38,950 nucleotides of DNA from a virus: IMG/VR virus record IMGVR_UViG_3300011965_000002; one strand, written 5' to 3'. Every line of letters starts with the position of its first letter. The stretch's first letter is position 1. A program made the translations under genes and the position numbers. Under the pieces are notes generated by a model that was not told the origin of the DNA, searched no databases, and worked only from the letters and a program-made list of their open reading frames with translations. Below, one piece after another: positions 22,892 to 36,636 of this stretch.

Positions 22892-23026
22892 TCACCTCCC
22901 CCAGGCTAACTGGATGTCACCCCAGTCAGCCTGTTCCTCGAACTCTGAGGAGGCCCTGAGAAGGGCCCCATGCGCGATCTCTACTTCCGCGCATATTTCC
23001 ACAATTTCTTTTCGCATATTCACCAT
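22892..23026 (-). CDS. Small protein (44 aa, MVNMRKEIVEIC...; not in ORF track)
   Basis: RBS GAGGTGAGGTAG; first gene of the minus-strand cassette. Confidence 0.6.
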   Translation of the reverse strand: MVNMRKEIVEICAEVEIAHGALLRASSEFEEQADWGDIQLAWGR

Positions 23027-23048
23027 CTACCTCACCTCATTTTCTTGT

Positions 23049-23200
23049 GGGGTTCAGGTGTTTTCACCTGTACCCCGTTGAGTGTATTCTGTTGGAGGGA
23101 GTATATAAATGTTTTCCTCCCTCCACCTATACACTCCATGATATACCTTATTCTGGATACTAATATATATACTTTTCTATTCCTCGTTTACTTTTAATAG
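23049..23200. promoter_or_regulatory. Divergent promoter region with two stem-loops / operator
   Basis: Hairpin 23049-60/23065-76 (11 of 12 bp). Nested inverted repeats 23080-87/23129-36 and 23093-101/23117-125 enclose a - strand TATA (GAAAACATTTATATA). A + strand TTTTAATA lies ~25-30 bp before the csf1 ATG. Confidence 0.65.
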
Positions 23201-23222
23201 CAGAACAAAAAGACGATAAAAC

Positions 23223-23846
23223 ATGAAACTCAGCACAATGTACACCAAAGCCACAAAACAAGAACCCAGCCCCGGCAAAGAACAAGGAACGTGCTGCATA
23301 TGCCACCAACAAACCAGACAAGGACACAAAAAAAGACTCGGCACAACCTTCACAACAACAGACCAGACAAGCAGAGGAGACGTCATCTGCCCCTACTGCA
23401 TGACACTCAAAAAAGACAGCAACAAACTCCGCAGGACAATGTGGATCCTCACAGAAGACAAATTCCACCCATTCAAACGCCCAGAACTCCCACAGATCCT
23501 CAAAGAACCACCAGACAAACCATACTACCTCTACCTGACAAGGACGTACAAGAAGATAGGCTGGATAATCATGGACGGCCTCCTGAACCAACCCAACCAG
23601 AAGATCATCAGATTAGCCTGTGACATGGAAACACATACACTAAGCCGTGAATTAGCAGTCCAGACCATAGAATGGATTAACGAGCTCAGAGAAAAATACA
23701 GAATCAGTAAGACGGAGATGAAGACTGGTGATGTGAACCCAGGGAAACTACAGGACATGACCGTCAGGGAAGCCAGGAACCTGAACATCACCCTAAACAA
23801 ATTGAAGGGTAACCCCACATGGGAGTTACTCATAGACATGGCATAA
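23223..23846 (+). CDS. csf1: Type IV CRISPR-Cas Csf1 (Cas8-like large subunit)
   Basis: Zn-finger CCIC...CPYC, then PP..P(Y/F)...TR.YKK.GW and C-terminal GNP.WELL motifs; first gene of a csf2/csf3 operon. Confidence 0.8.
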   Translation: MKLSTMYTKATKQEPSPGKEQGTCCICHQQTRQGHKKRLGTTFTTTDQTSRGDVICPYCMTLKKDSNKLRRTMWILTEDKFHPFKRPELPQILKEPPDKPYYLYLTRTYKKIGWIIMDGLLNQPNQKIIRLACDMETHTLSRELAVQTIEWINELREKYRISKTEMKTGDVNPGKLQDMTVREARNLNITLNKLKGNPTWELLIDMA

Positions 23847-23867
23847 TATTAGAGAGGTGAAAAAGGG

Positions 23868-23999
23868 ATGACCCAAAAGAAGAACCCGGCACCCATCCTC
23901 GTCAGGATAGGGGTATGGGTGACCATGATCTGCCTGGGAATAGTACTATTCTTCGTAGTCCTGGGCCTAATATCCGCAATACTTGGAGGAGGCGTATAG
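23868..23999 (+). CDS. Small membrane protein (43 aa; not in ORF track) inside the type IV operon
   Basis: RBS GAGGTGA. MTQKKNPAPILVRIGVWVTMICLGIVLFFVVLGLISAILGGGV has a basic N-terminus and a long hydrophobic stretch. Confidence 0.65.
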   Translation: MTQKKNPAPILVRIGVWVTMICLGIVLFFVVLGLISAILGGGV

Positions 24000-24000
24000 G

Positions 24001-24348
24001 ATGACTGATGAGAAGACTGAAAACGCCCTCGCAAAGTGCCTTGCGATGACGTATAGGAACATTGAATGGAAGAAAGTTGGTGTGAAATCAGCGTACACAT
24101 ACTTCACAGACCGTGTGCGCGCAGCAAGCCGCATGAGCACCATCACATCCTTCCTAGAAGAACTAAACAGGATGTGCGGTGTCAGCTTCACCCAGCACAG
24201 CCTCAAAGACATAAACACACTCAAAGAGAACGAAGACGAAGCACTCAACCTCCTCAGACACGAGACCAACTACGCAGTCCTACTCGCCCTGGAAGTTGTT
24301 GAGAAACTCAAAATGAAGAAAGCAGAGGATGAAGGTGATGAAGTATGA
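24001..24348 (+). CDS. cas11: Type IV-B small subunit (Cas11-like)
   Basis: 115-aa all-helical protein between csf1 and csf2 (Y..I.W...AYTYFTDRVRAA...FLEEL). ATG 24001 after GGAGGAGG. Confidence 0.7.
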   Translation: MTDEKTENALAKCLAMTYRNIEWKKVGVKSAYTYFTDRVRAASRMSTITSFLEELNRMCGVSFTQHSLKDINTLKENEDEALNLLRHETNYAVLLALEVVEKLKMKKAEDEGDEV

Positions 24349-25187
24349 GGACTGTTAAGTACCCTGGAGTGTTAACTGCCAGGACACCTATCCATCACGG
24401 CGGCCCTGAAGTCTATGGGACGATAAAACCCATACTCACACTCCCCACACTCATAGAGGATGAGAAGGGGATGAGGGTTGAGGACGTCCCCTACATCCAT
24501 GGGAATGCGATCAGGGGGTACCTCCGCCGCCTGGTCATGCAGGACTTCCTGGATCAACTCGATTATGACCTCAAATCAGCGAAGATCTACCATTTTCTCT
24601 TCACAGGGGGCCTCCTGGAGGCTAACACAAAATCCTCTGGTATGATTGACGTGAAACTCAAATCAGGGATCCGCAAGTACATCCCACCAGCAAGTCTCTG
24701 GGGTTCTGCCCTGGGCAATCAGATGCTCCAGGGCAAATTGAAGGTGGACCTTGCAGAACCGATCTGCAAGGAACTTTACTGGCAGCAGAAACAGTACTGT
24801 GACATCGATGGCCCTTCAAGTTATTTCCTGAAGGCGAGGGACTTCGGGACCCGCCTTGATAGTCTCAGGGAGTACAAGGAGGACAGAGAGGATGGAGAGC
24901 AGGCGACGCAGATGAAGTACGAGTTCGAAGTCATCGTGAAGGGTGCGAAGTTCTATCATGAATTCACACTCACAGACACTGACCCTGTTGAGGAATCATG
25001 TTTCATCCGGGCATTGAACCTGTGGAGCGAACGCCCCTACCTCGGGGGGAAGAGCGGTTCAGGGTACGGGAAACTGGATATCCGCTATGACTATGACCCT
25101 GATGCTGAGGCAACATACCTCTCGTATGTCGAGGAGAAGGCTGACCTGATCAGAGAGTTTCTTGATGAATTACAGGCAAACTGGTGA
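24345..25187 (+). CDS. csf2: Type IV CRISPR-Cas Csf2 (Cas7-like RAMP backbone)
   Basis: LTARTPIHHGG, VPYIHGNAIRGYLRR, LFTGG, SLWG, GTRLD, QMKYEFE and the G-rich loop LGGKSGSGYG. Confidence 0.9.
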   Translation: MRTVKYPGVLTARTPIHHGGPEVYGTIKPILTLPTLIEDEKGMRVEDVPYIHGNAIRGYLRRLVMQDFLDQLDYDLKSAKIYHFLFTGGLLEANTKSSGMIDVKLKSGIRKYIPPASLWGSALGNQMLQGKLKVDLAEPICKELYWQQKQYCDIDGPSSYFLKARDFGTRLDSLREYKEDREDGEQATQMKYEFEVIVKGAKFYHEFTLTDTDPVEESCFIRALNLWSERPYLGGKSGSGYGKLDIRYDYDPDAEATYLSYVEEKADLIREFLDELQANW

Positions 25188-25936
25188 TGATCATGTCTCT
25201 TGCTGCCAGGATCCAGGATAAAATCAGCGCCTACCAACCAGGAGGGGATGCACACACACCCTTCAAGGCGGAATTCAGGGTCAAACCACCAGTATTCACA
25301 GGGAACGCATGGATCTACCTCGACGGGATCATCCAGTACCTCTGCACCAGGGAGGCCCTCGGCGGGGACTTCTATGACATCCCCACCAACCACCTATTCG
25401 ACTTCAGCTCCATGCAGCTCCCGTTGAGGCGGACGGGGGACGTGTATCATGCCAGCGTCGGCGTCTATAGGGCCCCGAGGCTCAGAACATCCCGCATCTA
25501 TAAGCGTTTCGAGGATTACTTCATCGAGAACCATCCTCAACTACTCAACAGGTCATATGGTATAGGCAGCGGCCACTACAAGAACCATATGATCACCTAC
25601 CCAATAATAGTCACTGACACCGTGACTTTCTATGGCTGTGGCGACATAGTGGAGGTGGAGAGGCTCCTCAAACACCTCACACACCTGGGGAAGAAGACAG
25701 GCATCGGCGGCGGTAAAATCCTCAAACTCAAGGTCAGGGAGACGGAGATGGATCATAGCTTCTACCATGATGAGTATGGGGTGATGAGGCCCATCCCCAC
25801 AAGCCTGAAGGTCCCCCTACCTGTAGGGGCGGGCCAGGTGATTATGAAGATGGCCTATAAGCCACCATACTGGGACAAGAGGAACATAGACCTCTGCATA
25901 GCCCCCAAGAATCAGCTAGTAGGGGAGGCCCTATGA
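25184..25936 (+). CDS. csf3: Type IV CRISPR-Cas Csf3 (Cas5-like RAMP)
   Basis: LDGII, LPL..TGDVYHAS, KRF, GSG.YK, VTFYGCGD, LGKKTGIGGG, MRPIP and YKPPYW motifs. Confidence 0.88.
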   Translation: MMIMSLAARIQDKISAYQPGGDAHTPFKAEFRVKPPVFTGNAWIYLDGIIQYLCTREALGGDFYDIPTNHLFDFSSMQLPLRRTGDVYHASVGVYRAPRLRTSRIYKRFEDYFIENHPQLLNRSYGIGSGHYKNHMITYPIIVTDTVTFYGCGDIVEVERLLKHLTHLGKKTGIGGGKILKLKVRETEMDHSFYHDEYGVMRPIPTSLKVPLPVGAGQVIMKMAYKPPYWDKRNIDLCIAPKNQLVGEAL

Positions 25937-26583
25937 TAACAGGCGCTGTGACACCAATCAAGGATCATAGGGTCATACATGGCGATGCATTCAACGATGA
26001 CACCTACCAGCTTCTCCTCAATGATAAGAAGGCCGGCATCCTCTTCACAGACCCACCATTTGACCTCTACGACTTCAGTTGGCTTAACAAGGCCCTCAGG
26101 TGCATGGATGATGAGTGGGCTGCATTCATCTGTTTATCAACAGAACAGGTTAAAGTCCTGACAAAGGAATTCTATGACTATGTTAACTATTATTACACGA
26201 TAATAATGAAGCCTAAACCGAATAAGCGCATATTCACACCCATACCTAACTCATACCACATCGTACACCTCAATGGCGGCAGAAAACACATCAGAACTGA
26301 TAAACCCTTATACTCAACCATGAACGAATCCTACTACCTGAACGAACCTGGTGGGTCGAGGATGAAACATGTCCATCAGGGATGGGCGAAACCGCCCGCG
26401 ATGATAACTCACCTCCTCAGCCATTATGTAGTCCCTGGGGATATCATCCTCGACCCATTCGCAGGTTCAGGGGCTACTATAATGGCCGCGGAGAACCTTG
26501 GAGCCGTATGCTACGCGATAGAAAAGGAATTCGAACAGATAGCAGAATTAATGACTAACCTAAGGATGAATGGTCTAAGATGA
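25933..26583 (+). CDS. Amino (N6-A/N4-C) DNA methyltransferase, beta-class motif order
   Basis: Catalytic TDPPF precedes the SAM-binding DPFAGSG; HGDA and AKP motifs; ATGA overlaps at both ends. Confidence 0.88.
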   Translation: MITGAVTPIKDHRVIHGDAFNDDTYQLLLNDKKAGILFTDPPFDLYDFSWLNKALRCMDDEWAAFICLSTEQVKVLTKEFYDYVNYYYTIIMKPKPNKRIFTPIPNSYHIVHLNGGRKHIRTDKPLYSTMNESYYLNEPGGSRMKHVHQGWAKPPAMITHLLSHYVVPGDIILDPFAGSGATIMAAENLGAVCYAIEKEFEQIAELMTNLRMNGLR

Positions 26584-27287
26584 GGAAATTCAAGGAAGCC
26601 ATGAAGATCTACGCAACCCGGGACGAGTTCCTGGAACTCAAAGCCCAAACCCTCAGATTCATCAAGAAACTCTTCAAAGATTACAGGCGTCCATACGTTG
26701 CATTCAGCGGAGGGAAGGACAGCACAGTCCTCCTCCATTTAACCCTCCTCATAGAAAAGGACGTTGACGTTGTTCACACTGACTGGGGCCCAGCATTCGT
26801 CCCGCGCAACATCAAGGACAGGATACTCAGGAATGCTATGAAGATCGGAGCGAAAAAAGAGAACCTTAAAGTCCTCAAGGTGAAGGAAGGTTGGAGGCTG
26901 AGCCAGAGGGAAATCCCAGGCATCCCCCCAAGTTTTTGGGTGGAACTTAAATCCCTGATAGATGCCAACGGCTTCGACCTCGTCCTCCTCGGTTTCAGGG
27001 CTGATGAATCACGTAAACGATGGAAAAGAACAAGGAGGATCCTGGACACGCGCAGAGACCCCCATGAGGCTTACCCTCTAAGGGATTGGAGTTTTGAGGA
27101 CATATATGCATACATATACCATGAAGGCCTGCCTCTGCTCAGACATTATGATGATTATTCAGGGCTTCTCGGGTATGATAAGACGAGGTGGGTTACCTAT
27201 TTTGATAGTGAATTCGATCATCTGGGGGCATCATATGTTGATGGGGTGCTTAGGCCAGAGTACAGGCACCCTGATATGGAGGGATAG
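26580..27287 (+). CDS. cysH: CysH/PAPS-reductase-like PP-loop protein (type IV-B accessory)
   Basis: AFSGGKDS, GFRADES..R and YPLRDWS..DIYAYI motifs; no cysteine residues. Confidence 0.88.
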   Translation: MRKFKEAMKIYATRDEFLELKAQTLRFIKKLFKDYRRPYVAFSGGKDSTVLLHLTLLIEKDVDVVHTDWGPAFVPRNIKDRILRNAMKIGAKKENLKVLKVKEGWRLSQREIPGIPPSFWVELKSLIDANGFDLVLLGFRADESRKRWKRTRRILDTRRDPHEAYPLRDWSFEDIYAYIYHEGLPLLRHYDDYSGLLGYDKTRWVTYFDSEFDHLGASYVDGVLRPEYRHPDMEG

Positions 27288-27315
27288 ACCTCTAAGGAAA
27301 TTAATGGGGTGAGAT

Positions 27316-27420
27316 ATGATGGAGAAGGTGAGAACAACAGTCACAATCCCAGAGTACCTCTACGAGTACATGAAGGAGATTGTGAAACTGGCTAAGGATG
27401 AAGGATGTGTAGCAAAATGA
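27316..27420 (+). CDS. Short RHH-like peptide (34 aa; not in ORF track)
   Basis: RBS GGGGTGAG. VRTTVTIPEYLYEYMKE is a CopG/RHH-like strand plus helix, but the second helix looks short. Confidence 0.45.
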   Translation: MMEKVRTTVTIPEYLYEYMKEIVKLAKDEGCVAK

Positions 27421-27827
27421 AGGAAGATAGAGCGAACTCAAAGAACTCAAAGCTAACTGTAGAGTGGAACTCAAAGAATTCTGCTAAAGAGGAATTAAAG
27501 TCCTGGAGGTCCTCACAGTACCGTAGATTCCTTGAATCAGAGGCGAAGACAAGCCTCCCTGTCACGAGTCATGACATCGAGGAAGTGATGTGGATCGTTG
27601 AGAGAGTGAAACTCTCAGATCTTCATGCGAGGGCGACATGGGAGCAGGTCCTCCTTGCCCTCACAGTATTCATCCTTGAATCCAGACTTCCCTACACCAT
27701 CCAATTCGAGCGTTATAGTATCCTTAAAAAGTATCGGGTTGATGTACGCCTCTACGCGACTGTGTTGCGGAATCTTCTCAGGGTTTATCGTTTGAACATG
27801 CCTATACAGTCCTCCCTATCACGGTAG
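27417..27827 (+). CDS. Helical protein, possibly a single TFB-like cyclin fold
   Basis: ATGA overlap. Five-helix pattern with LHARATWEQVLLALTVFIL reminiscent of the TFB RGRS.E.V.AA.LY segment. Confidence 0.4.
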   Translation: MKEDRANSKNSKLTVEWNSKNSAKEELKSWRSSQYRRFLESEAKTSLPVTSHDIEEVMWIVERVKLSDLHARATWEQVLLALTVFILESRLPYTIQFERYSILKKYRVDVRLYATVLRNLLRVYRLNMPIQSSLSR

Positions 27828-27896
27828 GCGTGTGGCATCTTGACTGTGTTACGTTATATAGTGAGAGGGGACTATTTATGTCCCCTGGTGAAGGCT

Positions 27897-28046
27897 ATGA
27901 GTCTTTGTCCATATTGTGGGTCCGAGAGAAGGGATTATATCGACGAGGATGGGTACATGGTCTGCAAGGATTGTGGCCTTGTCCTCGCTGCACTGTACCC
28001 TTACACTGCAGGTTTGAGATTGCATCTCCCTGAGGGCCTCCTATAA
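27897..28046 (+). CDS. TFIIB/TFB-type zinc-ribbon protein (49 aa)
   Basis: CPYCGS...DEDGYMVCKDCGLVL; RBS GGTGA before ATG 27897. Confidence 0.75.
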   Translation: MSLCPYCGSERRDYIDEDGYMVCKDCGLVLAALYPYTAGLRLHLPEGLL

Positions 28047-28052
28047 CCGGGG

Positions 28053-28340
28053 GTGAGATTATTGGCGAATGAATATATCTTGGAACACTTAGAGGCCTTT
28101 AACTCTTCCCTCGTCGATTTTATTAACCGTTTTGAGTGGGTTGAGCGTGGAGTTGTGGAGGTCTGTGACATACTCAACTTCGCAGCTCTTATTGTCGGTG
28201 TGGCTGTCTGTTTCCTTCCTGATGAGTATGGTGGTGTCTGTATCTATATCGATGACGATGCAGTTGAGTACCTCCCATTGATACTCGACGTGTTCAAGAA
28301 GAACTACGTGAACTGGGGTCTCAGGGAGCCGCTGATCTAA
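28053..28340 (+). CDS. Hypothetical protein (95 aa)
   Basis: Open frame packed in the operon. Confidence 0.6.
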   Translation: MRLLANEYILEHLEAFNSSLVDFINRFEWVERGVVEVCDILNFAALIVGVAVCFLPDEYGGVCIYIDDDAVEYLPLILDVFKKNYVNWGLREPLI

Positions 28341-28347
28341 TATTGGG

Positions 28348-28572
28348 GTGAGATATATGGGTGTTGATCATGGAAAGCTGAGTACATACGTTGTTGGTGT
28401 TATGGTCCTTGTCTATGGGTATCTTCTGAGTAACCCGTCCCTTATTGAGGGATTCATGGCTAAAATGGGCTTGGCAGGGTACAGTCCACTTGTGTTATCG
28501 ATACTTGCATTCACATATGATTATTTCTTCCCAAGAGAATCATCAGAGATGGAAGGCCCTGATGAGGCCTGA
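28348..28572 (+). CDS. Small membrane protein, holin-like
   Basis: Two hydrophobic segments and a charged C-terminus. Confidence 0.55.
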   Translation: MRYMGVDHGKLSTYVVGVMVLVYGYLLSNPSLIEGFMAKMGLAGYSPLVLSILAFTYDYFFPRESSEMEGPDEA

Positions 28573-28589
28573 ATAAAGGGTGGTGATGA

Positions 28590-28898
28590 GTGGGAGCGCA
28601 TCAAATCCAATGCGATGACATTAAGAACCTTACCAGGGACCTTGCTGAGATTAAGGCAGTCCTCAGGGAGAAGAATGTTATGAATGGGTTCACAAGGGAG
28701 CGTATTGAGGATCTTGAGAAGACTGATGATGAGATCTATGAACGCCTCGATGGACTCCATGATGACCTTGTAAGTCTCCGTGAGGAGGTCTATGGCCTTA
28801 ATGTGACTCTTAGACTCTTTTATCGGATTAATGTGGCTGTGATAATCTCTGTTTTCACTACTCTCGCGGTTTATGGGTTTAAGGTTATCCTGCTTTGA
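28590..28898 (+). CDS. Coiled-coil protein with a C-terminal TM helix (XhlA/holin-like)
   Basis: Heptad pattern, then INVAVIISVFTTLAVYGFKVILL. Confidence 0.55.
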   Translation: MGAHQIQCDDIKNLTRDLAEIKAVLREKNVMNGFTRERIEDLEKTDDEIYERLDGLHDDLVSLREEVYGLNVTLRLFYRINVAVIISVFTTLAVYGFKVILL

Positions 28899-28934
28899 AC
28901 TTCATTATAGTGTAATATAGCGAAGTATACTGGT

Positions 28935-29459
28935 GTGATGATGAAGGGTGAGGAAGAGAAGCACAGGGAAGCATACGACCATTACCTCGCCCACATTGAG
29001 GCAGGATACACAAAGACGGCGAGCGTCAAAGAAACAGCCAGAAGGATAGGGGTCTCCGAGGCAACAGTCTGGAACTGGAAGAGACGCTTCCACTGGGATG
29101 AGAAACAGGCAATAGACAGCTACGAGATCAAACAGACATTCAAGGAACGGAATCATGAAATCATCATAGACTTCAAGACCAAATACCTCGCATTCCTCAA
29201 TGACCTCATCGACCAGGCCATAGAGGAATTCCGTGAGGGCCGAGGCGTCGTCATGATACGTGACGTCGGAGACCTCGAAAGAGTAATCAAAGTAGCCCTC
29301 CTCCTCCAGGGCGAGGCCACAAGCAGGACTGAGAGCAGCGTCCTGCAAGTGAACAGGGAGAAGATAGAGGACTATGAGGAGTACTTCAGAGAATTAGAGG
29401 AGGAACTTGGACTGGAGGATGGTGCGGATGAGGATCAAGGCGCGGAGGGGATTTACTGA
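28935..29459 (+). CDS. terS: Terminase small subunit
   Basis: HTH ARRIGVSEATVWNWKRRFHW; immediately upstream of TerL. Confidence 0.8.
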   Translation: MMMKGEEEKHREAYDHYLAHIEAGYTKTASVKETARRIGVSEATVWNWKRRFHWDEKQAIDSYEIKQTFKERNHEIIIDFKTKYLAFLNDLIDQAIEEFREGRGVVMIRDVGDLERVIKVALLLQGEATSRTESSVLQVNREKIEDYEEYFRELEEELGLEDGADEDQGAEGIY

Positions 29460-30783
29460 TGCTGAGAAAGACTTCCTCACTGAGACAGTCCTTAAGAACC
29501 CTTACATTCCACATAAACCCTTCCTCAAACAGGCCATATTCCTCACAAGGCTTGACAGGGAACTGCTCTACGGTGGTCAGGCTGGTGGAGGGAAGTCTGA
29601 CGCCCTCCTCATGGCAGCCCTGCAATACGTCATGTACCCGGACTACCATGCACTCCTACTCAGGAGGACTTACAAGGAATTAGCTCTCCCAGGTGCCCTC
29701 ATGGATCGTGCGGATGAATGGTTAACACCAACGGATGCTGAATGGAATGCTGAGAACAAGACATGGGAATTCCCATCCGGCGCGACCCTCACCTTCGGGT
29801 ACCTTGAACATGAGAGGGATAAACGCCGATACCAGTCCTCAGAGTTCCAGTTTATAGGCTTTGATGAACTCACAGAGTTCACAGAGTCACAGTACACCTT
29901 CCTCTTCAGCAGGAACAGGAAGACAGAGGACAACCCCGTCCCGCTGAGGACGAGGGCCGCTACGAACCCTGGAGGTGTGGGCCATGACTGGGTGAAACAG
30001 CGATTCATTGAGGGCCCATCACCATTCCTCCCATCCAGTTACACTGAGAATCCCTACCTCGACGCCTCTTATGAGGAAAGCCTTGACCTCCTCGACCCGA
30101 TCACCCGTCGACAGCTCAAATATGGAGATTGGTCAGCAACGATAGAGGGCAGGCTCTTCACTGAGGATATCATCGACTTCTATGATGAGACACCGACACC
30201 AGAACAGACCAGCCTCGCGGTCAGGTACTGGGACCTGGCAGCCACACCTGACAAGAATGATGATTCTATAAGTGGTGGTGCGGACTGGACAGTAGGCGCA
30301 CTCCTAATCCTCGACAACTCAGGGAGCCTCTACCTTGAGGATATCATACGATTCAGGCTTTCACCAGCCGAGGCGGAGGACATGATACTTAGAACAATCC
30401 GGGAGGACTTTGAGGTCTACAGGGAGAAGTACATGGCACGCGCTGAACTCGAGGGAGGCGCATCTGCAAGGTATGTGATGGAATCCCTCCGCCGACGCCT
30501 GGCTGGTGTTAACTTCGATGGGGCCCCGGTTCAGGGTAAAAGTAAGTTGGATCGGGCCCGGGCTCTCCTCCCAGCATTCAGGAGTGGCCAGTTAAGGCTT
30601 AAGAGGGATGCTCAGTGGCTCTACACCTTCACGAGGGAACTCCTCGCATTCCCATCAAGGGGTGTTCATGATGACCAGGTCGACGCCCTCAGCGGGGCCT
30701 ACCTCCAGGTCGCTGACATGACCTCAGGGGATCCGTATGGGGCTTCAGGTAGGCGGTATAAAGGTTATGGGGTGACATATTGA
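29407..30783 (+). CDS. terL: Terminase large subunit
   Basis: Walker A YGGQAGGGKS, Walker B FIGFDE, ATNPGG, nuclease YWDLAA and HDDQVDA. Confidence 0.96.
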   Translation: MDWRMVRMRIKARRGFTDAEKDFLTETVLKNPYIPHKPFLKQAIFLTRLDRELLYGGQAGGGKSDALLMAALQYVMYPDYHALLLRRTYKELALPGALMDRADEWLTPTDAEWNAENKTWEFPSGATLTFGYLEHERDKRRYQSSEFQFIGFDELTEFTESQYTFLFSRNRKTEDNPVPLRTRAATNPGGVGHDWVKQRFIEGPSPFLPSSYTENPYLDASYEESLDLLDPITRRQLKYGDWSATIEGRLFTEDIIDFYDETPTPEQTSLAVRYWDLAATPDKNDDSISGGADWTVGALLILDNSGSLYLEDIIRFRLSPAEAEDMILRTIREDFEVYREKYMARAELEGGASARYVMESLRRRLAGVNFDGAPVQGKSKLDRARALLPAFRSGQLRLKRDAQWLYTFTRELLAFPSRGVHDDQVDALSGAYLQVADMTSGDPYGASGRRYKGYGVTY

Positions 30784-32182: not shown

Positions 32183-32917
32183 GTGGAATTTAGAATGGTG
32201 AAGCGTGAACTCCTACACGTCCGTGCAGTGACAGGTGACATGGAGAAGAAACTCAAGAAGGCCTTCAAGGCTGCTGCTGAACGATGGGAGAAAGAACTGA
32301 GGAGCTGCGAGACTGAGGATGAATTCATAGAGAAAGTGTTCAACAAGGCCGTTAACCCAATCTACTCAGTTAAAGGCGTTGAAGAGGTTATCAATGGCGC
32401 GGGGAGGGCGTTCACGGCATATGACATGCCACTCGGTCTGAGGAAGGAGCTCTTCAATGAAGTCCTCAAATCTGATATTTCAGGGTATATGGCGAAGGTG
32501 AACCGGGAGGTTGGTGATGACATCTTGAAGCAGATGTCACGGATGGTCTCTGAGAAGAAACCTTACACCGAGATGATGACAGAACTGCCACGCCGCTACG
32601 AATCCCTCTCCACCTTCAGATCAAGGACTATCGTGAGGACAGAGATGCTCCGAGCAGGGAACATGGTCGAATACCAGCGAGGCCTTGCAGACCCCGCGAA
32701 CCAGTACTACCGCGTCATAAGCCATCCTAACTGCTGCCCAGACTGCGCAGAACTCTACGGGTACGGTGAATCATTCTTCAGAGCCGATGAAGTGGATAAA
32801 CTCCCACCACTCCACCCTAACTGCAGGTGCGTAGTGGACTGGCCAAGTGTCTTCGACCTGCCACCAGAACTCCAGGCGGAGGTCCTTGGCACTGTAAGAG
32901 GTGATACTATTGTCTGA
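32183..32917 (+). CDS. Minor head protein (Mu gpF / SPP1 gp7-like)
   Basis: TIVRTE..RA.N, CPDC and PPLHPNCRC. Confidence 0.88.
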   Translation: MEFRMVKRELLHVRAVTGDMEKKLKKAFKAAAERWEKELRSCETEDEFIEKVFNKAVNPIYSVKGVEEVINGAGRAFTAYDMPLGLRKELFNEVLKSDISGYMAKVNREVGDDILKQMSRMVSEKKPYTEMMTELPRRYESLSTFRSRTIVRTEMLRAGNMVEYQRGLADPANQYYRVISHPNCCPDCAELYGYGESFFRADEVDKLPPLHPNCRCVVDWPSVFDLPPELQAEVLGTVRGDTIV

Positions 32918-33959
32918 AGACGTTAAAGACGAAGAAAGAGTCGAGGAAGAGACACGGGAGCCACAGAGGATGAAAGTTGATGCTGTGATGTGGTCCCCCG
33001 GGGTCATATACCCATTCCTGGATGGAACACCAGGGAAAGTCTACGCTGACAAGGAACTCGCAGATGAAGTGTACGAGAAGATACTTGCAAGGGTCCAGGA
33101 CGGAGGCCTCCCCATCACCATAGACCACCTGGACCAGGACGACCTGGAGATACTCAAGGAACTCGGGTACGGCGTGGTTGGAAGGGTTACAGGGGTTGAA
33201 CTCCGCAATGGACGAGTACACGCAACAGAGATAACATTTGACGGAGAGGCCATCCCACAACTCCTCAAAGATGGCCTCATGAGGGCCTTCAGTATAGAAG
33301 CAGAGGTTGAAACCGAACCCGTAGAGGATGGGTACCGCATCATAGGCTTCAGGGACGTGACAGGTGTGAGCATAGTGAAAAAACCAGCCTGCCCATCCTG
33401 CCTCGTCTACCGCATCAATGCGTACACATCAAATGATAAGCTGAGAATCCAGATGAAGTTCACGCCAAGAGGTGATATAATGAAAAAAGAGGATGAAATA
33501 ACTGAATCCGAGGTAAAAGCTCAGGAAGAAGTTCCTCCGGAAGATGGAGGCGAGGGAGACACAGTGGAATTACTCCCAGACCTCATAGACAGAATAAATG
33601 AATTGATAAATGAACTCGATGCCATGATCACCAGGATCCAGGAACTCCAACCAGTTGAGGATGGTAAAGAGGCTCCGGCGGAGGAAATCGCAGAGAACCT
33701 TGCAGATGACCTGAAAGAGAAGGCAGCAGCCCTAAACGCTAAGAAACTCGTCGAGAAGTACATTGAGGAAGGTAAAGTGAAACCCGCGGAGACAGAGGCC
33801 CACATCAAACTTGCGATGAAAGCCCCAGCTGAGTACTCTAAGATCATGGATGAAGCACCCCAGGTCATTGAGATGTCAAGGATGTCCAGGAACCCGGCTG
33901 ATATGAAGGAGAAAGAGTTCTACACGTATGAAGAATACCGTAAAAGATTCCACAGGTGA
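32901..33959 (+). CDS. Capsid maturation protease with C-terminal scaffold region
   Basis: PITIDH and FSIE motifs with an acidic helical C-terminus; lies between minor head and capsid genes. Likely start TTG 32910. Confidence 0.75.
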   Translation: MILLSEDVKDEERVEEETREPQRMKVDAVMWSPGVIYPFLDGTPGKVYADKELADEVYEKILARVQDGGLPITIDHLDQDDLEILKELGYGVVGRVTGVELRNGRVHATEITFDGEAIPQLLKDGLMRAFSIEAEVETEPVEDGYRIIGFRDVTGVSIVKKPACPSCLVYRINAYTSNDKLRIQMKFTPRGDIMKKEDEITESEVKAQEEVPPEDGGEGDTVELLPDLIDRINELINELDAMITRIQELQPVEDGKEAPAEEIAENLADDLKEKAAALNAKKLVEKYIEEGKVKPAETEAHIKLAMKAPAEYSKIMDEAPQVIEMSRMSRNPADMKEKEFYTYEEYRKRFHR

Positions 33960-34465
33960 TAAGGATGGTTGTGAAATACAATTATGGTGAAATAGGCCCC
34001 GGGGTTGCCATGGAGCTCAAAGAGGGGAACCTAACAGTCTCCGAGGTTAACACCCCACAGGGCAGACAGGTAGGTGCAACATTCCAGTACCCTGCCAAGA
34101 AAGGGGATATCATGGCCCTTGCAGGAGACCTCCTAGTCGAAAAACTCAGAAGCGGAGTGTCAGGGAAACCCATCGGCGTCCTGGAGGATGAACCACAATT
34201 CCAGGGCCAGCCACCATCATCAAACGCTACCTACGGGAACTACCCGAACAGGATCGCAGCGGTCAAACTATTCGGTGTTGCTGTGAGGGAAATGGAACTC
34301 ACGTCATCAAACGCGGCGATCACTGCAGGGGACTACATCAAAGTCGCCTCTGATGGGCAGACTATAGACAAGTCAACTGACCCTACTGATAAGATAGCCC
34401 TTAAATCAGCATCCGCCAATAGTGGCGCTGAGATACCAGTCCTCGTAGGCTACTACTACAAATAA
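33956..34465 (+). CDS. Capsid decoration/cement protein
   Basis: Position before the major capsid gene; AITAGDYIKVASDG...IAL motif typical of decoration proteins. Confidence 0.65.
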   Translation: MIRMVVKYNYGEIGPGVAMELKEGNLTVSEVNTPQGRQVGATFQYPAKKGDIMALAGDLLVEKLRSGVSGKPIGVLEDEPQFQGQPPSSNATYGNYPNRIAAVKLFGVAVREMELTSSNAAITAGDYIKVASDGQTIDKSTDPTDKIALKSASANSGAEIPVLVGYYYK

Positions 34466-34474
34466 GGTGATAAT

Positions 34475-35401
34475 ATGCCCGCTATAACAACCACAATGCC
34501 ACCTGAGGCCCTCCTCAGGAAACATAACCTGGAGTACTTGGAGTACTATATAACTGAGAAACTCATACCTGAGGTCCCATTCCTCAACATACTCCCAACA
34601 GCTGATAACACGACAGGGGAGTTCACCAGTGTCGTGGAATCTATGAACCCGGTCGCTGATATCAAGGATGGGAAGCAGGGACTTCCTGGCCTTGCTAGTG
34701 AGGCTTCAGACCTGACCACGATCCAGTTGAAGGCTGGGAAGGTTGTCTCTGGGAACACAGTCTCATATGGTTACAGCCTCGCATACACTGACAAGGACGC
34801 TGATAGAGGCCAGTTCACAGCTGATATACAGTTAGCGACTCAGAGGATGATCGCAGGCTTCGCATACTTCCTGAACGAGTACATCGCATCAGAACTCGTT
34901 AGGACAGCAGGCCTATCCGCCCCAGATGACCTCAGTGACTGGGCCCTCGATGAATATGATCCCCGCGGAGACCTCCTCAAGATACGTAAGAAATTCAGGG
35001 AAGAAACAGGCCTATTCCAGGCTGATATGGTCCTCCTATCACTTGATCCATACTGTAAGATCCAGGAGTACCTCCTAAGCTTCGATAAGGAGGTGGATGA
35101 GGAGAACATGTCAGTCGATGGTATGATGATCAAGAACGTTGGTGACTCCTTCGATGACACGAAGGACATGATCGTCATGGACTCTAAGGCCCCTCCAGGC
35201 ATCATAGAGAAGTATGTTAGCCCAGAATACTCAGCACTATCATCACAGGCCGCCCCAGGAGTCCCACCAGCACTTATCAACATCAACGAGGTTAAAGAGG
35301 ACACCTACCCACACAGGAACATACTAGAACTCTGGGTTGACATCGGATACAACAGTAGGGAGCCTGGAAGCCTCATGACAGGACAACTTATCAGATCATA
35401 G
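34475..35401 (+). CDS. Major capsid protein (HK97 fold)
   Basis: 308 aa at the canonical position in the head module. Confidence 0.8.
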   Translation: MPAITTTMPPEALLRKHNLEYLEYYITEKLIPEVPFLNILPTADNTTGEFTSVVESMNPVADIKDGKQGLPGLASEASDLTTIQLKAGKVVSGNTVSYGYSLAYTDKDADRGQFTADIQLATQRMIAGFAYFLNEYIASELVRTAGLSAPDDLSDWALDEYDPRGDLLKIRKKFREETGLFQADMVLLSLDPYCKIQEYLLSFDKEVDEENMSVDGMMIKNVGDSFDDTKDMIVMDSKAPPGIIEKYVSPEYSALSSQAAPGVPPALININEVKEDTYPHRNILELWVDIGYNSREPGSLMTGQLIRS

Positions 35402-35402
35402 G

Positions 35403-35762
35403 GTGACTGTTATGTTCACAAGACTTCTTAGACGTAAAGGAGGCCCTATTAAGGGCCTCACCGACTTTATTCATGAACTCGTTGTCTCTGTCTCTGAGAT
35501 CAGTGGCAGTGTCTCTACCCTCAATAACCGAGTTCTTGCTGTGGAGAACAAATCCGTTGAGATCATCGGGCCGCGGACAGGGACAGGTGAAGAGGAGACA
35601 GTGCCTCACACTCTCGGCGTAGCTCCAACAAAGGTTGTTGTTGCCCTTGCATCAGTCCCTGGGGAGGGAGGGGCGCTAAGTAGTGTAGGGGCTAAAACAA
35701 ACACGACTGTGAAGGTGACTGTAACAGGATCTGCTGATTACTACCTCATCCTGCAGAAATAA
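35403..35762 (+). CDS. Putative head fibre / minor structural protein
   Basis: Short coiled coil plus VPHTLGVAP beta-rich C-terminus. Confidence 0.45.
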   Translation: MTVMFTRLLRRKGGPIKGLTDFIHELVVSVSEISGSVSTLNNRVLAVENKSVEIIGPRTGTGEEETVPHTLGVAPTKVVVALASVPGEGGALSSVGAKTNTTVKVTVTGSADYYLILQK

Positions 35763-35784
35763 GACTCTGTAAGAGGGTGTATGA

Positions 35785-36174
35785 ATGGTTTCAGTTGACA
35801 CTGAGAAGATCGTCGAGATGGTGAGCGTCTACGTCGACACTCCCTCAGATACCCTCGTTAATGGTGCGGTGGATAACGCTACTCAGACAGCGCTTCAATC
35901 ACTGCGCACAGCAGGCTACGATGAGACTTCACTCGATGGGTACACTGAGGACACATACAGAGTGGCTATAGAGTTCTACGCGATAGCAGACCTTATCAGG
36001 GCACTCTACAATGCTAATGACTCGTCAGGGGAGGAACAGGTCAGGTACTACATGGAGAGAGGGGATCGTCTGATACGTGAACTGATCAGTGAACTCGATG
36101 AAGGCTCCTTGAACCCTGAAACCAGCCCCATATCCGCCACTAAAACAGATTACAAGTATAATACGAGGTACTAA
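35785..36174 (+). CDS. Head-tail adaptor-like protein
   Basis: Helical 129 aa at the adaptor position. Confidence 0.55.
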   Translation: MVSVDTEKIVEMVSVYVDTPSDTLVNGAVDNATQTALQSLRTAGYDETSLDGYTEDTYRVAIEFYAIADLIRALYNANDSSGEEQVRYYMERGDRLIRELISELDEGSLNPETSPISATKTDYKYNTRY

Positions 36175-36204
36175 AAAGGATAGAATGTTTTTAGGAGTAG
36201 TGTC

Positions 36205-36636
36205 ATGGTATTTGAGATCGAGATAGACCGCGGCGCTCTTGATGCCCTTGCAGGGGCCGCGGATAAGGTGAAGGACTACATAATCGCCGGCCTCGATGAT
36301 TTCATGAGGAGCATTGAGTCAGAGGCTAAATTCAGCGCTCCGATCAGGACTGGGAATCTCAGGGCGAGTCATGTGATCTATGCTCCTGATGAGTTCACCC
36401 GTGTCCTGACTGTTGACACGAATCAGGCCCCATACGCGGTGTTTGTACATGAGGGTACCAGTCCACATATCATTGAGCCTGTCCATGCGAAGGCCCTGTT
36501 CTTTGATGGCAGGTTCGCGAGGAGGGTTCATCACCCTGGGACTCCACCCAACCCCTGGATGAGGGATGTGATTGAGGACGCTGACCCCACAAGTCACATA
36601 GAAAACTACCTCTCACTACTCCTTGGAGGTTTATAG
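36205..36636 (+). CDS. HK97 gp10-like tail completion/neck protein
   Basis: APIRTGNLRASH, YAVFVHEGT and HPGTPPNPWM. Confidence 0.85.
   Translation: MVFEIEIDRGALDALAGAADKVKDYIIAGLDDFMRSIESEAKFSAPIRTGNLRASHVIYAPDEFTRVLTVDTNQAPYAVFVHEGTSPHIIEPVHAKALFFDGRFARRVHHPGTPPNPWMRDVIEDADPTSHIENYLSLLLGGL

Follow-up and report, generated by a model that had tools for sequence, protein, structure and literature searches.

We find a DNA methyltransferase gene seated between csf3 and a cysteine-free cysH-like gene in a type IV-B cas cassette carried by a methanogen virus (IMG/VR record IMGVR_UViG_3300011965_000002). The window is the whole 38,950-nt stretch of this record, and coordinates count from its first letter. 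Six tightly packed plus-strand genes in its open reading frame (ORF) list (23223-27287) encode, in order, Csf1, a Cas11-like protein, Csf2, Csf3, the methylase and the CysH-like protein. The cassette, of type IV-B and array-less, resides on a psiM2/psiM100-like Methanobacteriales siphovirus. Because the csf3-methylase-cysH order recurs and a second methylase family occupies the same slot, sequence comparison supports a functional tie of some kind between the cassette and nucleic-acid modification. Our tentative preference, to which we give slightly less than an even chance, is that the methylase is functionally coupled at the module level with Csf and CysH; an orphan methylase is almost as likely an explanation. 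To our knowledge, the function of type IV-B systems and of their invariant CysH-like partner has been an open question since the subtype was defined, and a methylase between csf3 and cysH provides a clean experimental handle on it.

The methylase gene (25933..26583, plus strand, 216 aa) very probably encodes, judged by sequence and model together, an intact and unusually compact beta-class DNA amino-methyltransferase that is S-adenosylmethionine (SAM)-dependent and of the N6-adenine or N4-cytosine type. It matches PF01555 (N6_N4_Mtase) at 52.4 bits against a cut-off of 26.7, with only the C-terminal residues 137-204 aligned. The two motifs reported in a preliminary description of this DNA are present as TDPPFD at residues 39-44 (DPPF at 40-43) and DPFAGSG at 174-180 (FAGSG at 176-180). 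Motif IV thus lies N-terminal of the SAM-binding motif I (FxGxG), the permutation that defines the beta class. Residues D40, P41, D174 and F176 are invariant among 51 relatives, and P42, G178 and G180 are nearly so. The aspartate of DPPF favors N6-adenine as the target. A phmmer search of PDB sequences matched the methylase to CcrM, M1.HpyAVI (DpnA) and M.RsrI.

An AlphaFold2 model of the methylase built from 51 homologues has a mean predicted local distance difference test score (pLDDT) of 86.6 and a predicted template modeling (TM) score (pTM) of 0.85. Its only low-confidence part is residues 93-150, where beta-class enzymes have their target-recognition region. The top Foldseek matches of the model are M1.HpyAVI, CcrM, M.MboIIA, M.RsrI and M.PvuII, all with probability 1.00; M1.HpyAVI ranks nearest, and an N4-cytosine methylase is also among the matches, after M.MboIIA. 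The TM scores of the best PDB matches (M1.HpyAVI, CcrM and M.MboIIA), taken by model length, are 0.65-0.72. The N6-adenine enzymes M1.HpyAVI (PDB 5HFJ/5HEK) and CcrM (6PBD) have the same motif order, with a DPPY-type motif IV first and FxGxG last, and compare with the window methylase at a Foldseek E of ~1e-13 and a TM of 0.72-0.8; M1.HpyAVI is similarly compact. The window enzyme differs from both in sequence (20-24% identity), in having DPPF rather than DPPY and in its location in a Cas operon. No nuclease domain was found by profile near the methylase, whose neighbors are csf3, cysH and a TFB-like 140-aa ORF; restriction enzymes are frequently missed by profile searches.

The methylase overlaps the genes on both sides of it, as the preliminary description had noted. 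The raw sequence reads cctATGAtaa at the csf3/methylase junction (4-nt ATGA overlap, 25933-25936) and aagATGAgg at the methylase/cysH-like junction (4-nt ATGA overlap, 26580-26583), and translation may be coupled across these junctions. The same description had taken the overlaps to imply translational coupling; cas11/csf2 and csf2/csf3 also overlap by 4 nt, and such overlaps are common in the window. The ATGA overlaps show a compact operon and no methylase-specific link.

The nearest relatives of the methylase are found in cassettes of the same kind. A word-indexed set of 5.8 billion proteins contains only two close clusters (99% and 76% identity), both in the order csf3-methylase-cysH. Next came P0079 (34% identity, 206 aa) and P0080 (28% identity, 214 aa), found when 1.84 billion representatives were searched exhaustively with HMMER, and the top non-self matches in that set are exactly the cassette methylases. 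The locus with the 76% identical methylase (L002) retains the csf3-methylase-cysH order with both 4-nt overlaps. In L255, P0079 comes immediately after a csf3 with 63% identity to that of the window; the contig stops 39 codons into the gene that follows the methylase, and cysH was not identified there. P0080 (L256) lies in the context csf1-cas11-[NUMOD3 gene]-csf2-csf3-methylase-cysH-Cas6. In all four lineages (4/4) the end of the methylase gene still overlaps the start of the next gene by 4 nt, and the four cassette methylases align end to end. In a tree that also includes 47 other relatives the four cluster, with a Shimodaira-Hasegawa-like approximate likelihood-ratio test (SH-aLRT) support of 84 (98 for three of them), long branches being a caveat to this grouping.

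More distant relatives are mostly ~370-aa phage methylases with an N-terminal domain (ParB_N in one case), and others are short forms beside terminase genes and without csf genes. These ~370-aa phage methylases and short pre-terminase orphans are the next closest after the cassette methylases (22-32% identity) and are also virus-borne and near terminase genes; the window methylase, unlike the ~370-aa proteins, lacks the ~150-aa N-terminal domain and is embedded in a Cas operon. No csf genes adjoin the methylase in any of the 80 IMG/VR loci found with the methylase alignment as seed (0/80); one (L297) has a csf1-like ORF 4 kb away. Since the nearest relatives are cassette-borne and appear to form a monophyletic group, and the farther ones are phage methylases without csf genes, the window methylase belongs to a small subfamily that resides in cassettes and stems from ordinary phage methylases. 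Comparison of the window with L002 (574-4642) gives protein identities of 100% for csf1, 99% for cas11, 93% for csf2, 83% for csf3, 76% for the methylase and 88% for cysH. This drop in identity along the operon suggests either a recombination boundary or diversifying selection centered on the methylase.

We surveyed the slot between csf3 and cysH in loci collected with a CysH alignment (IMG/VR, species genomes and metagenomes) and a Csf2 alignment (IMG/VR), plus the window itself; L002, L250 and L256 were added by exact look-up of contigs encoding the methylase relatives P0005, P0057 and P0080. Loci were annotated with jackhmmer profiles seeded from the six proteins of the window, and inserts were scanned with Pfam. 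This gave 77 non-redundant csf2+csf3 loci, 64 of which have the cysH-like gene downstream. About 30% of these cassettes (19/64) carry inserted genes between csf3 and cysH, mostly of modification type. The beta-methylase occupies the slot in the window, L002 and L256, and a 215-aa DPPW/CxGxG methylase-like family (P0054) does so in L010, L250/L251 and L376. IbrA-like PAPS_reduct+DUF3440 proteins, often with ParB_N and sometimes with GNAT or PD-(D/E)XK, are found in L012, L176, L339, L250, L376 and L393. Cas6 is found in L337 and L395. The remaining inserts are glycosyltransferase family 2 (GT2)-like (L011, below cut-off, and L345), SpoU-like (L347 and L369, below the Pfam cut-off), Methyltransf_25-like (L371, below cut-off) and HAD-like (L392, below cut-off), together with ORFs without an assigned family in L341 (166 aa) and, beside their weak matches, in L347 (136 aa) and L371 (217 aa). 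The window falls inside a fully supported 10-locus clade of the Csf2+Csf3 tree, and the beta-methylase state is found on both sides of the basal split of this clade. The 166-aa ORF of L341, the sister of L256, was considered as a decayed methylase and rejected, as tblastn gave no significant same-strand similarity.

The two methylase families of the slot are treated as separate. BLASTP between the window methylase (P0001) and the L010 slot methylase (P0054) is not significant, and a profile comparison indicates homology (96.5%, E 8e-10) at the level expected of any two beta-class methylases. Members of the P0054 family are found, too, in a phage module that lacks csf genes and has an SNF2 helicase, an IbrA-like gene and ParB_N. 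This cas-free order (SNF2 helicase, 215-aa DPPW methylase-like protein, IbrA-like PAPS-reductase+DUF3440, ParB_N) is conserved in L252:4607-8980, L253:4087-8487 and L254:3611-8220, with a 260-aa protein between the methylase-like and IbrA-like genes in L252 and L253, and is probably a DNA-modification unit.

The cysH-like gene (26580..27287, plus strand, 235 aa) encodes a type IV-B-associated PP-loop protein resembling 3'-phosphoadenosine-5'-phosphosulfate (PAPS) reductase, here called CasCysH. It matches PF01507 (PAPS_reduct) at 58.8 bits against a cut-off of 22.5. The PP-loop and GxRxxES motifs of the preliminary description are present as SGGKDS at residues 43-48 and GFRADES at 138-144, and the protein has zero Cys, as had been claimed. 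No conserved Cys column exists in 28 CasCysH homologues, and in 20+ loci a homologue of 25-45% identity is encoded downstream of csf3, either adjoining it or separated by inserts. A bona fide PAPS or adenosine-5'-phosphosulfate (APS) reductase needs a C-terminal catalytic Cys (ECGLH) or an Fe-S cluster, and we reject this identity for CasCysH (no Cys; TIGR00434 25.8 bits, cut-off 165). The role of DndC is likewise rejected (no Cys; TIGR03183 21.2 bits, cut-off 290), and there are weak matches to TilS, TtuA and LarE. A retained PP-loop with the catalytic Cys gone places the protein in the CasCysH clade, in agreement with PMC8175902. The analogy to PAPS-reductase-based DNA modification has been drawn before (PMC8175902, PMC12839542): DndC, SspD and the BREX type 4 protein BrxP are likewise PAPS-reductase-fold PP-loop enzymes in a DNA-marking setting. 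CasCysH, unlike these, lacks both cysteines and a partner cysteine desulfurase, which excludes phosphorothioation chemistry.

Under module-level coupling, the methylase would be transcribed and inherited together with Csf and CysH, and the cassette would serve as a viral nucleic-acid-modification or counter-defense unit. CysH would be the constant enzyme, with the chemistry varied by the slot gene; in the window this would be SAM-dependent N-methylation, and its most likely target the N6 of adenine in a short DNA motif. The sequence data argue for coupling in that the nearest relatives of the methylase are exclusive to cassettes, appear monophyletic and keep their place even at 28% identity, separate methylase families were recruited independently to the csf3-cysH junction, and modification-type enzymes predominate in the slot. 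The preliminary description had proposed a Csf-linked modification module, and that proposal gains from the order being kept in three further lineages (methylases 76%, 34% and 28% identical; cysH not identified in L255) and from the second methylase family in the slot. Several observations weigh against coupling. The slot is empty in 70% of the cassettes (45/64), with cysH within 120 nt of csf3, and elsewhere it also holds Cas6 and unassigned ORFs. These empty slots bring the survey close to the absence from related type IV-B loci that the preliminary description had held to count against its proposal. The window's own 10-locus clade shows five slot states (beta-methylase, empty, Cas6, IbrA+GNAT+ParB and the unrelated 166-aa ORF), a turnover resembling that of a permissive cargo site. 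The methylase is also the fastest-diverging gene of the operon (76% against 83-100% for its neighbors in L002), as expected for an arms-race anti-restriction gene. Farther out, its relatives are ordinary phage methylases beside terminase genes, where this operon also lies. Methylases are common elsewhere in the surveyed contigs and in viral genomes generally, in which they typically sit near terminase genes. These same facts favor a hitch-hiking orphan anti-restriction methylase in a permissive junction, acting on a fixed short motif in viral DNA independently of Csf, RNA and CysH, which we regard as a serious contender whose chance also falls short of even. The family of phage methylases to which it belongs, many of them ~370 aa with an extra N-terminal region or short forms beside terminase genes, fits such an origin, and with no second methylase among the scanned window ORFs it could be the only protective methylase of the virus. 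The orphan explanation is harder to reconcile with nearest relatives that are all cassette-resident among 1.84 billion proteins and with the independent recruitment of unrelated methylase families to one slot. If the methylase is autonomous, the csf3-cysH junction is still a cargo hotspot, which would weaken adjacency-based inferences.

More elaborate readings are less probable than either of these. It is unlikely, if attractive, that type IV-B cassettes modify nucleic acids as programmable or RNA-scaffolded machines, in which a Csf ribonucleoprotein (RNP), CasCysH and an interchangeable slot enzyme install a mark on the DNA or RNA that is held. CasCysH would in that case activate a base or backbone group with ATP, and the slot enzyme would be an amino-methyltransferase here and a DPPW-type methylase, SPOUT methylase, glycosyltransferase or IbrA with ParB elsewhere. 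We consider it very unlikely that the Csf RNP base-pairs with a target and recruits the methylase and CysH to mark the locus for silencing or protection, as the preliminary description had imagined. The operon shared by the methylase and csf genes, the Cas6 genes of the sister cassettes L256, L337 and L395 and the short, low-confidence recognition region of the model (residues 93-150), which could mean that a partner is needed for targeting, would be compatible with such guidance. The closest solved structure, M1.HpyAVI, is an autonomous motif methylase of about 230-240 aa. There is neither a clustered regularly interspaced short palindromic repeat (CRISPR) array nor Cas6 in the window, five scanned relatives of its clade have no arrays, and the one type IV-B complex that was purified bound heterogeneous non-CRISPR RNA (PMC7937560). 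RNA-guided aiming of the methylase by Csf is conjecture in an array-less system and is supported by nothing we found; a co-fold of CasCysH with the methylase scored 0.00, which counts neither way. Least probable of all is an RNA substrate, with the methylase modifying RNA in the Csf filament or host RNA captured by it, much as SPOUT-type RNA methylases in the slot of other cassettes would. Pointing in this direction are the binding of cellular RNA by type IV-B Csf (PMC7937560), the many PP-loop relatives of CysH that modify tRNA, the weak TilS, TtuA and LarE matches of CysH, and the SpoU-like slot matches of L369 and L347. The SpoU matches are below the Pfam cut-off, and the close structural and sequence neighbors of the methylase are all DNA methylases.

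The window cassette represents a variant of the known CasCysH-bearing type IV-B system rather than an undescribed one; what is specific to it is the beta-class DNA methylase clade in the cassette and its presence in a methanogen virus. The suggestion of an undescribed system in the preliminary description was overtaken by earlier publications, as the cysteine-free CysH had been described (PMC8175902) and an epigenetic silencing or restriction-modification link for type IV-B had been suggested (bioRxiv 10.1101/780106). The literature searched contains no paper linking type IV-B with a methyltransferase or ParB, except for an 'N6-MTase' label in a figure legend (bioRxiv 10.1101/270033). The Csf complex of Mycobacterium sp. 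JS623 (PMC7937560, PMC8175902) shares the csf1-cas11-csf2-csf3 order and the cysteine-free CysH-like gene downstream, and both cassettes lack an array, Cas6, adaptation genes and a nuclease. The window differs from JS623 in the DNA methylase between csf3 and cysH, in its location on an archaeal virus rather than an actinobacterial plasmid and in Csf proteins that have diverged below the NCBIfam cut-offs. Type IV-B has already been reported on archaeal viruses, the Fuxiviridae (PMC10848311). The Fuxivirus cassette, from viruses of Bathyarchaeia, is likewise of type IV-B and has a CysH-like gene next to Csf3; in Fuxivirus CysH adjoins Csf3, a mini-array is present and the methylase stands alone elsewhere (gene 47), whereas the window has no array and carries the methylase inside the operon.

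Assignment to type IV-B rests on csf1, cas11, csf2 and csf3 in one operon, reciprocal matches with >70 cassettes and the associated cysH-like gene with PF01507 at 26580-27287. The NCBIfam matches of Csf1, Csf2 and Csf3 are all below equivalog cut-offs, and the RAMPs match (PF03787) is above its Pfam cut-off. The plus-strand gene csf1 (23223..23846, 207 aa) encodes a Cas8-like large subunit (TIGR03114, E 1.6e-8, below cut-off), and its 100% identical homologue in L001/L002 has a weak PF27781 Csf1 match. The cas11-like small subunit (23983..24348, plus strand, 121 aa) is named from its position between csf1 and csf2; it has no family match in Pfam and NCBIfam profile scans and was matched by phmmer/jackhmmer to the equivalent gene of related type IV-B loci. 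The Cas7 protein Csf2 (24345..25187, plus strand, 280 aa) matches PF03787 RAMPs at 32.2 bits (cut-off 22.1) and TIGR03115 (E 1.5e-14), and is 37-58% identical to Csf2 from 70+ viral loci. The Cas5 protein Csf3 (25184..25936, plus strand, 250 aa) matches TIGR03116 (E 1.1e-18), and its relatives carry PF27782 Csf3. The window has no CRISPR array (no tandem or spaced repeats of array type), and its scanned ORFs contain no Cas6, adaptation-gene or helicase domains.

Several features of related cassettes stand apart from the methylase. At least 11 of the 77 non-redundant viral loci have an IbrA-like PAPS-reductase+DUF3440 gene within the type IV-B cassette or immediately after it, usually accompanied by a ParB_N gene (for example L176:3669-6017, L250:5499-8511, L012:3997-5352, L170:7486-9203, L374:5491-7157, L376:5852-9661 and L393:8469-11608), and no report of this IbrA/ParB association with type IV-B turned up in the literature searched. 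Cas6 is encoded in three cassettes of the window's clade, after cysH in L256 (4989-5444) and in the slot in L337 (8575-9273) and L395 (8572-9270), with no CRISPR array detected near it in the stretches examined. The L256 cassette also has a homing endonuclease-like NUMOD3-domain gene (1302-1784) inserted between cas11 and csf2. In a Promethearchaeota-labelled contig (L250:8508-12648), a GT2-radical SAM fusion and another GT2 gene come after the CasCysH of the cassette, before which lie sugar-nucleotide genes and a class I methyltransferase.

The remaining genes of the window encode siphovirus tail proteins, PCNA, small and large terminase subunits, a Mu-type portal and a tail tube protein, and the operon lies just upstream of terminase. 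The large terminase shares 45-49% identity with its counterparts in the Methanothermobacter phages psiM100, psiM2 and PhiF3, none of which has a detectable Csf2. Megablast of window positions 23000-29500 against GenBank phages gave no match; the near-identical and 76%-identity relatives originate from Logan run assemblies and a biogas-fermenter metagenome. The only isolated GenBank phage with a Csf2 match is Skermania phage SPI1 (L419, KR011061.1), which has an apparent unannotated type IV-B cassette at 32609-36242, in an actinophage; Orf42 matches Csf2, the consecutive Orf40 to Orf44 are all annotated 'hypothetical protein', and the slot gene is absent. The 140-aa ORF that follows cysH in the window (27405-27827) has a homologue in L002 with a TFIIB-type zinc ribbon (PF08271), consistent with a putative archaeal transcription-factor mimic ahead of the late genes.

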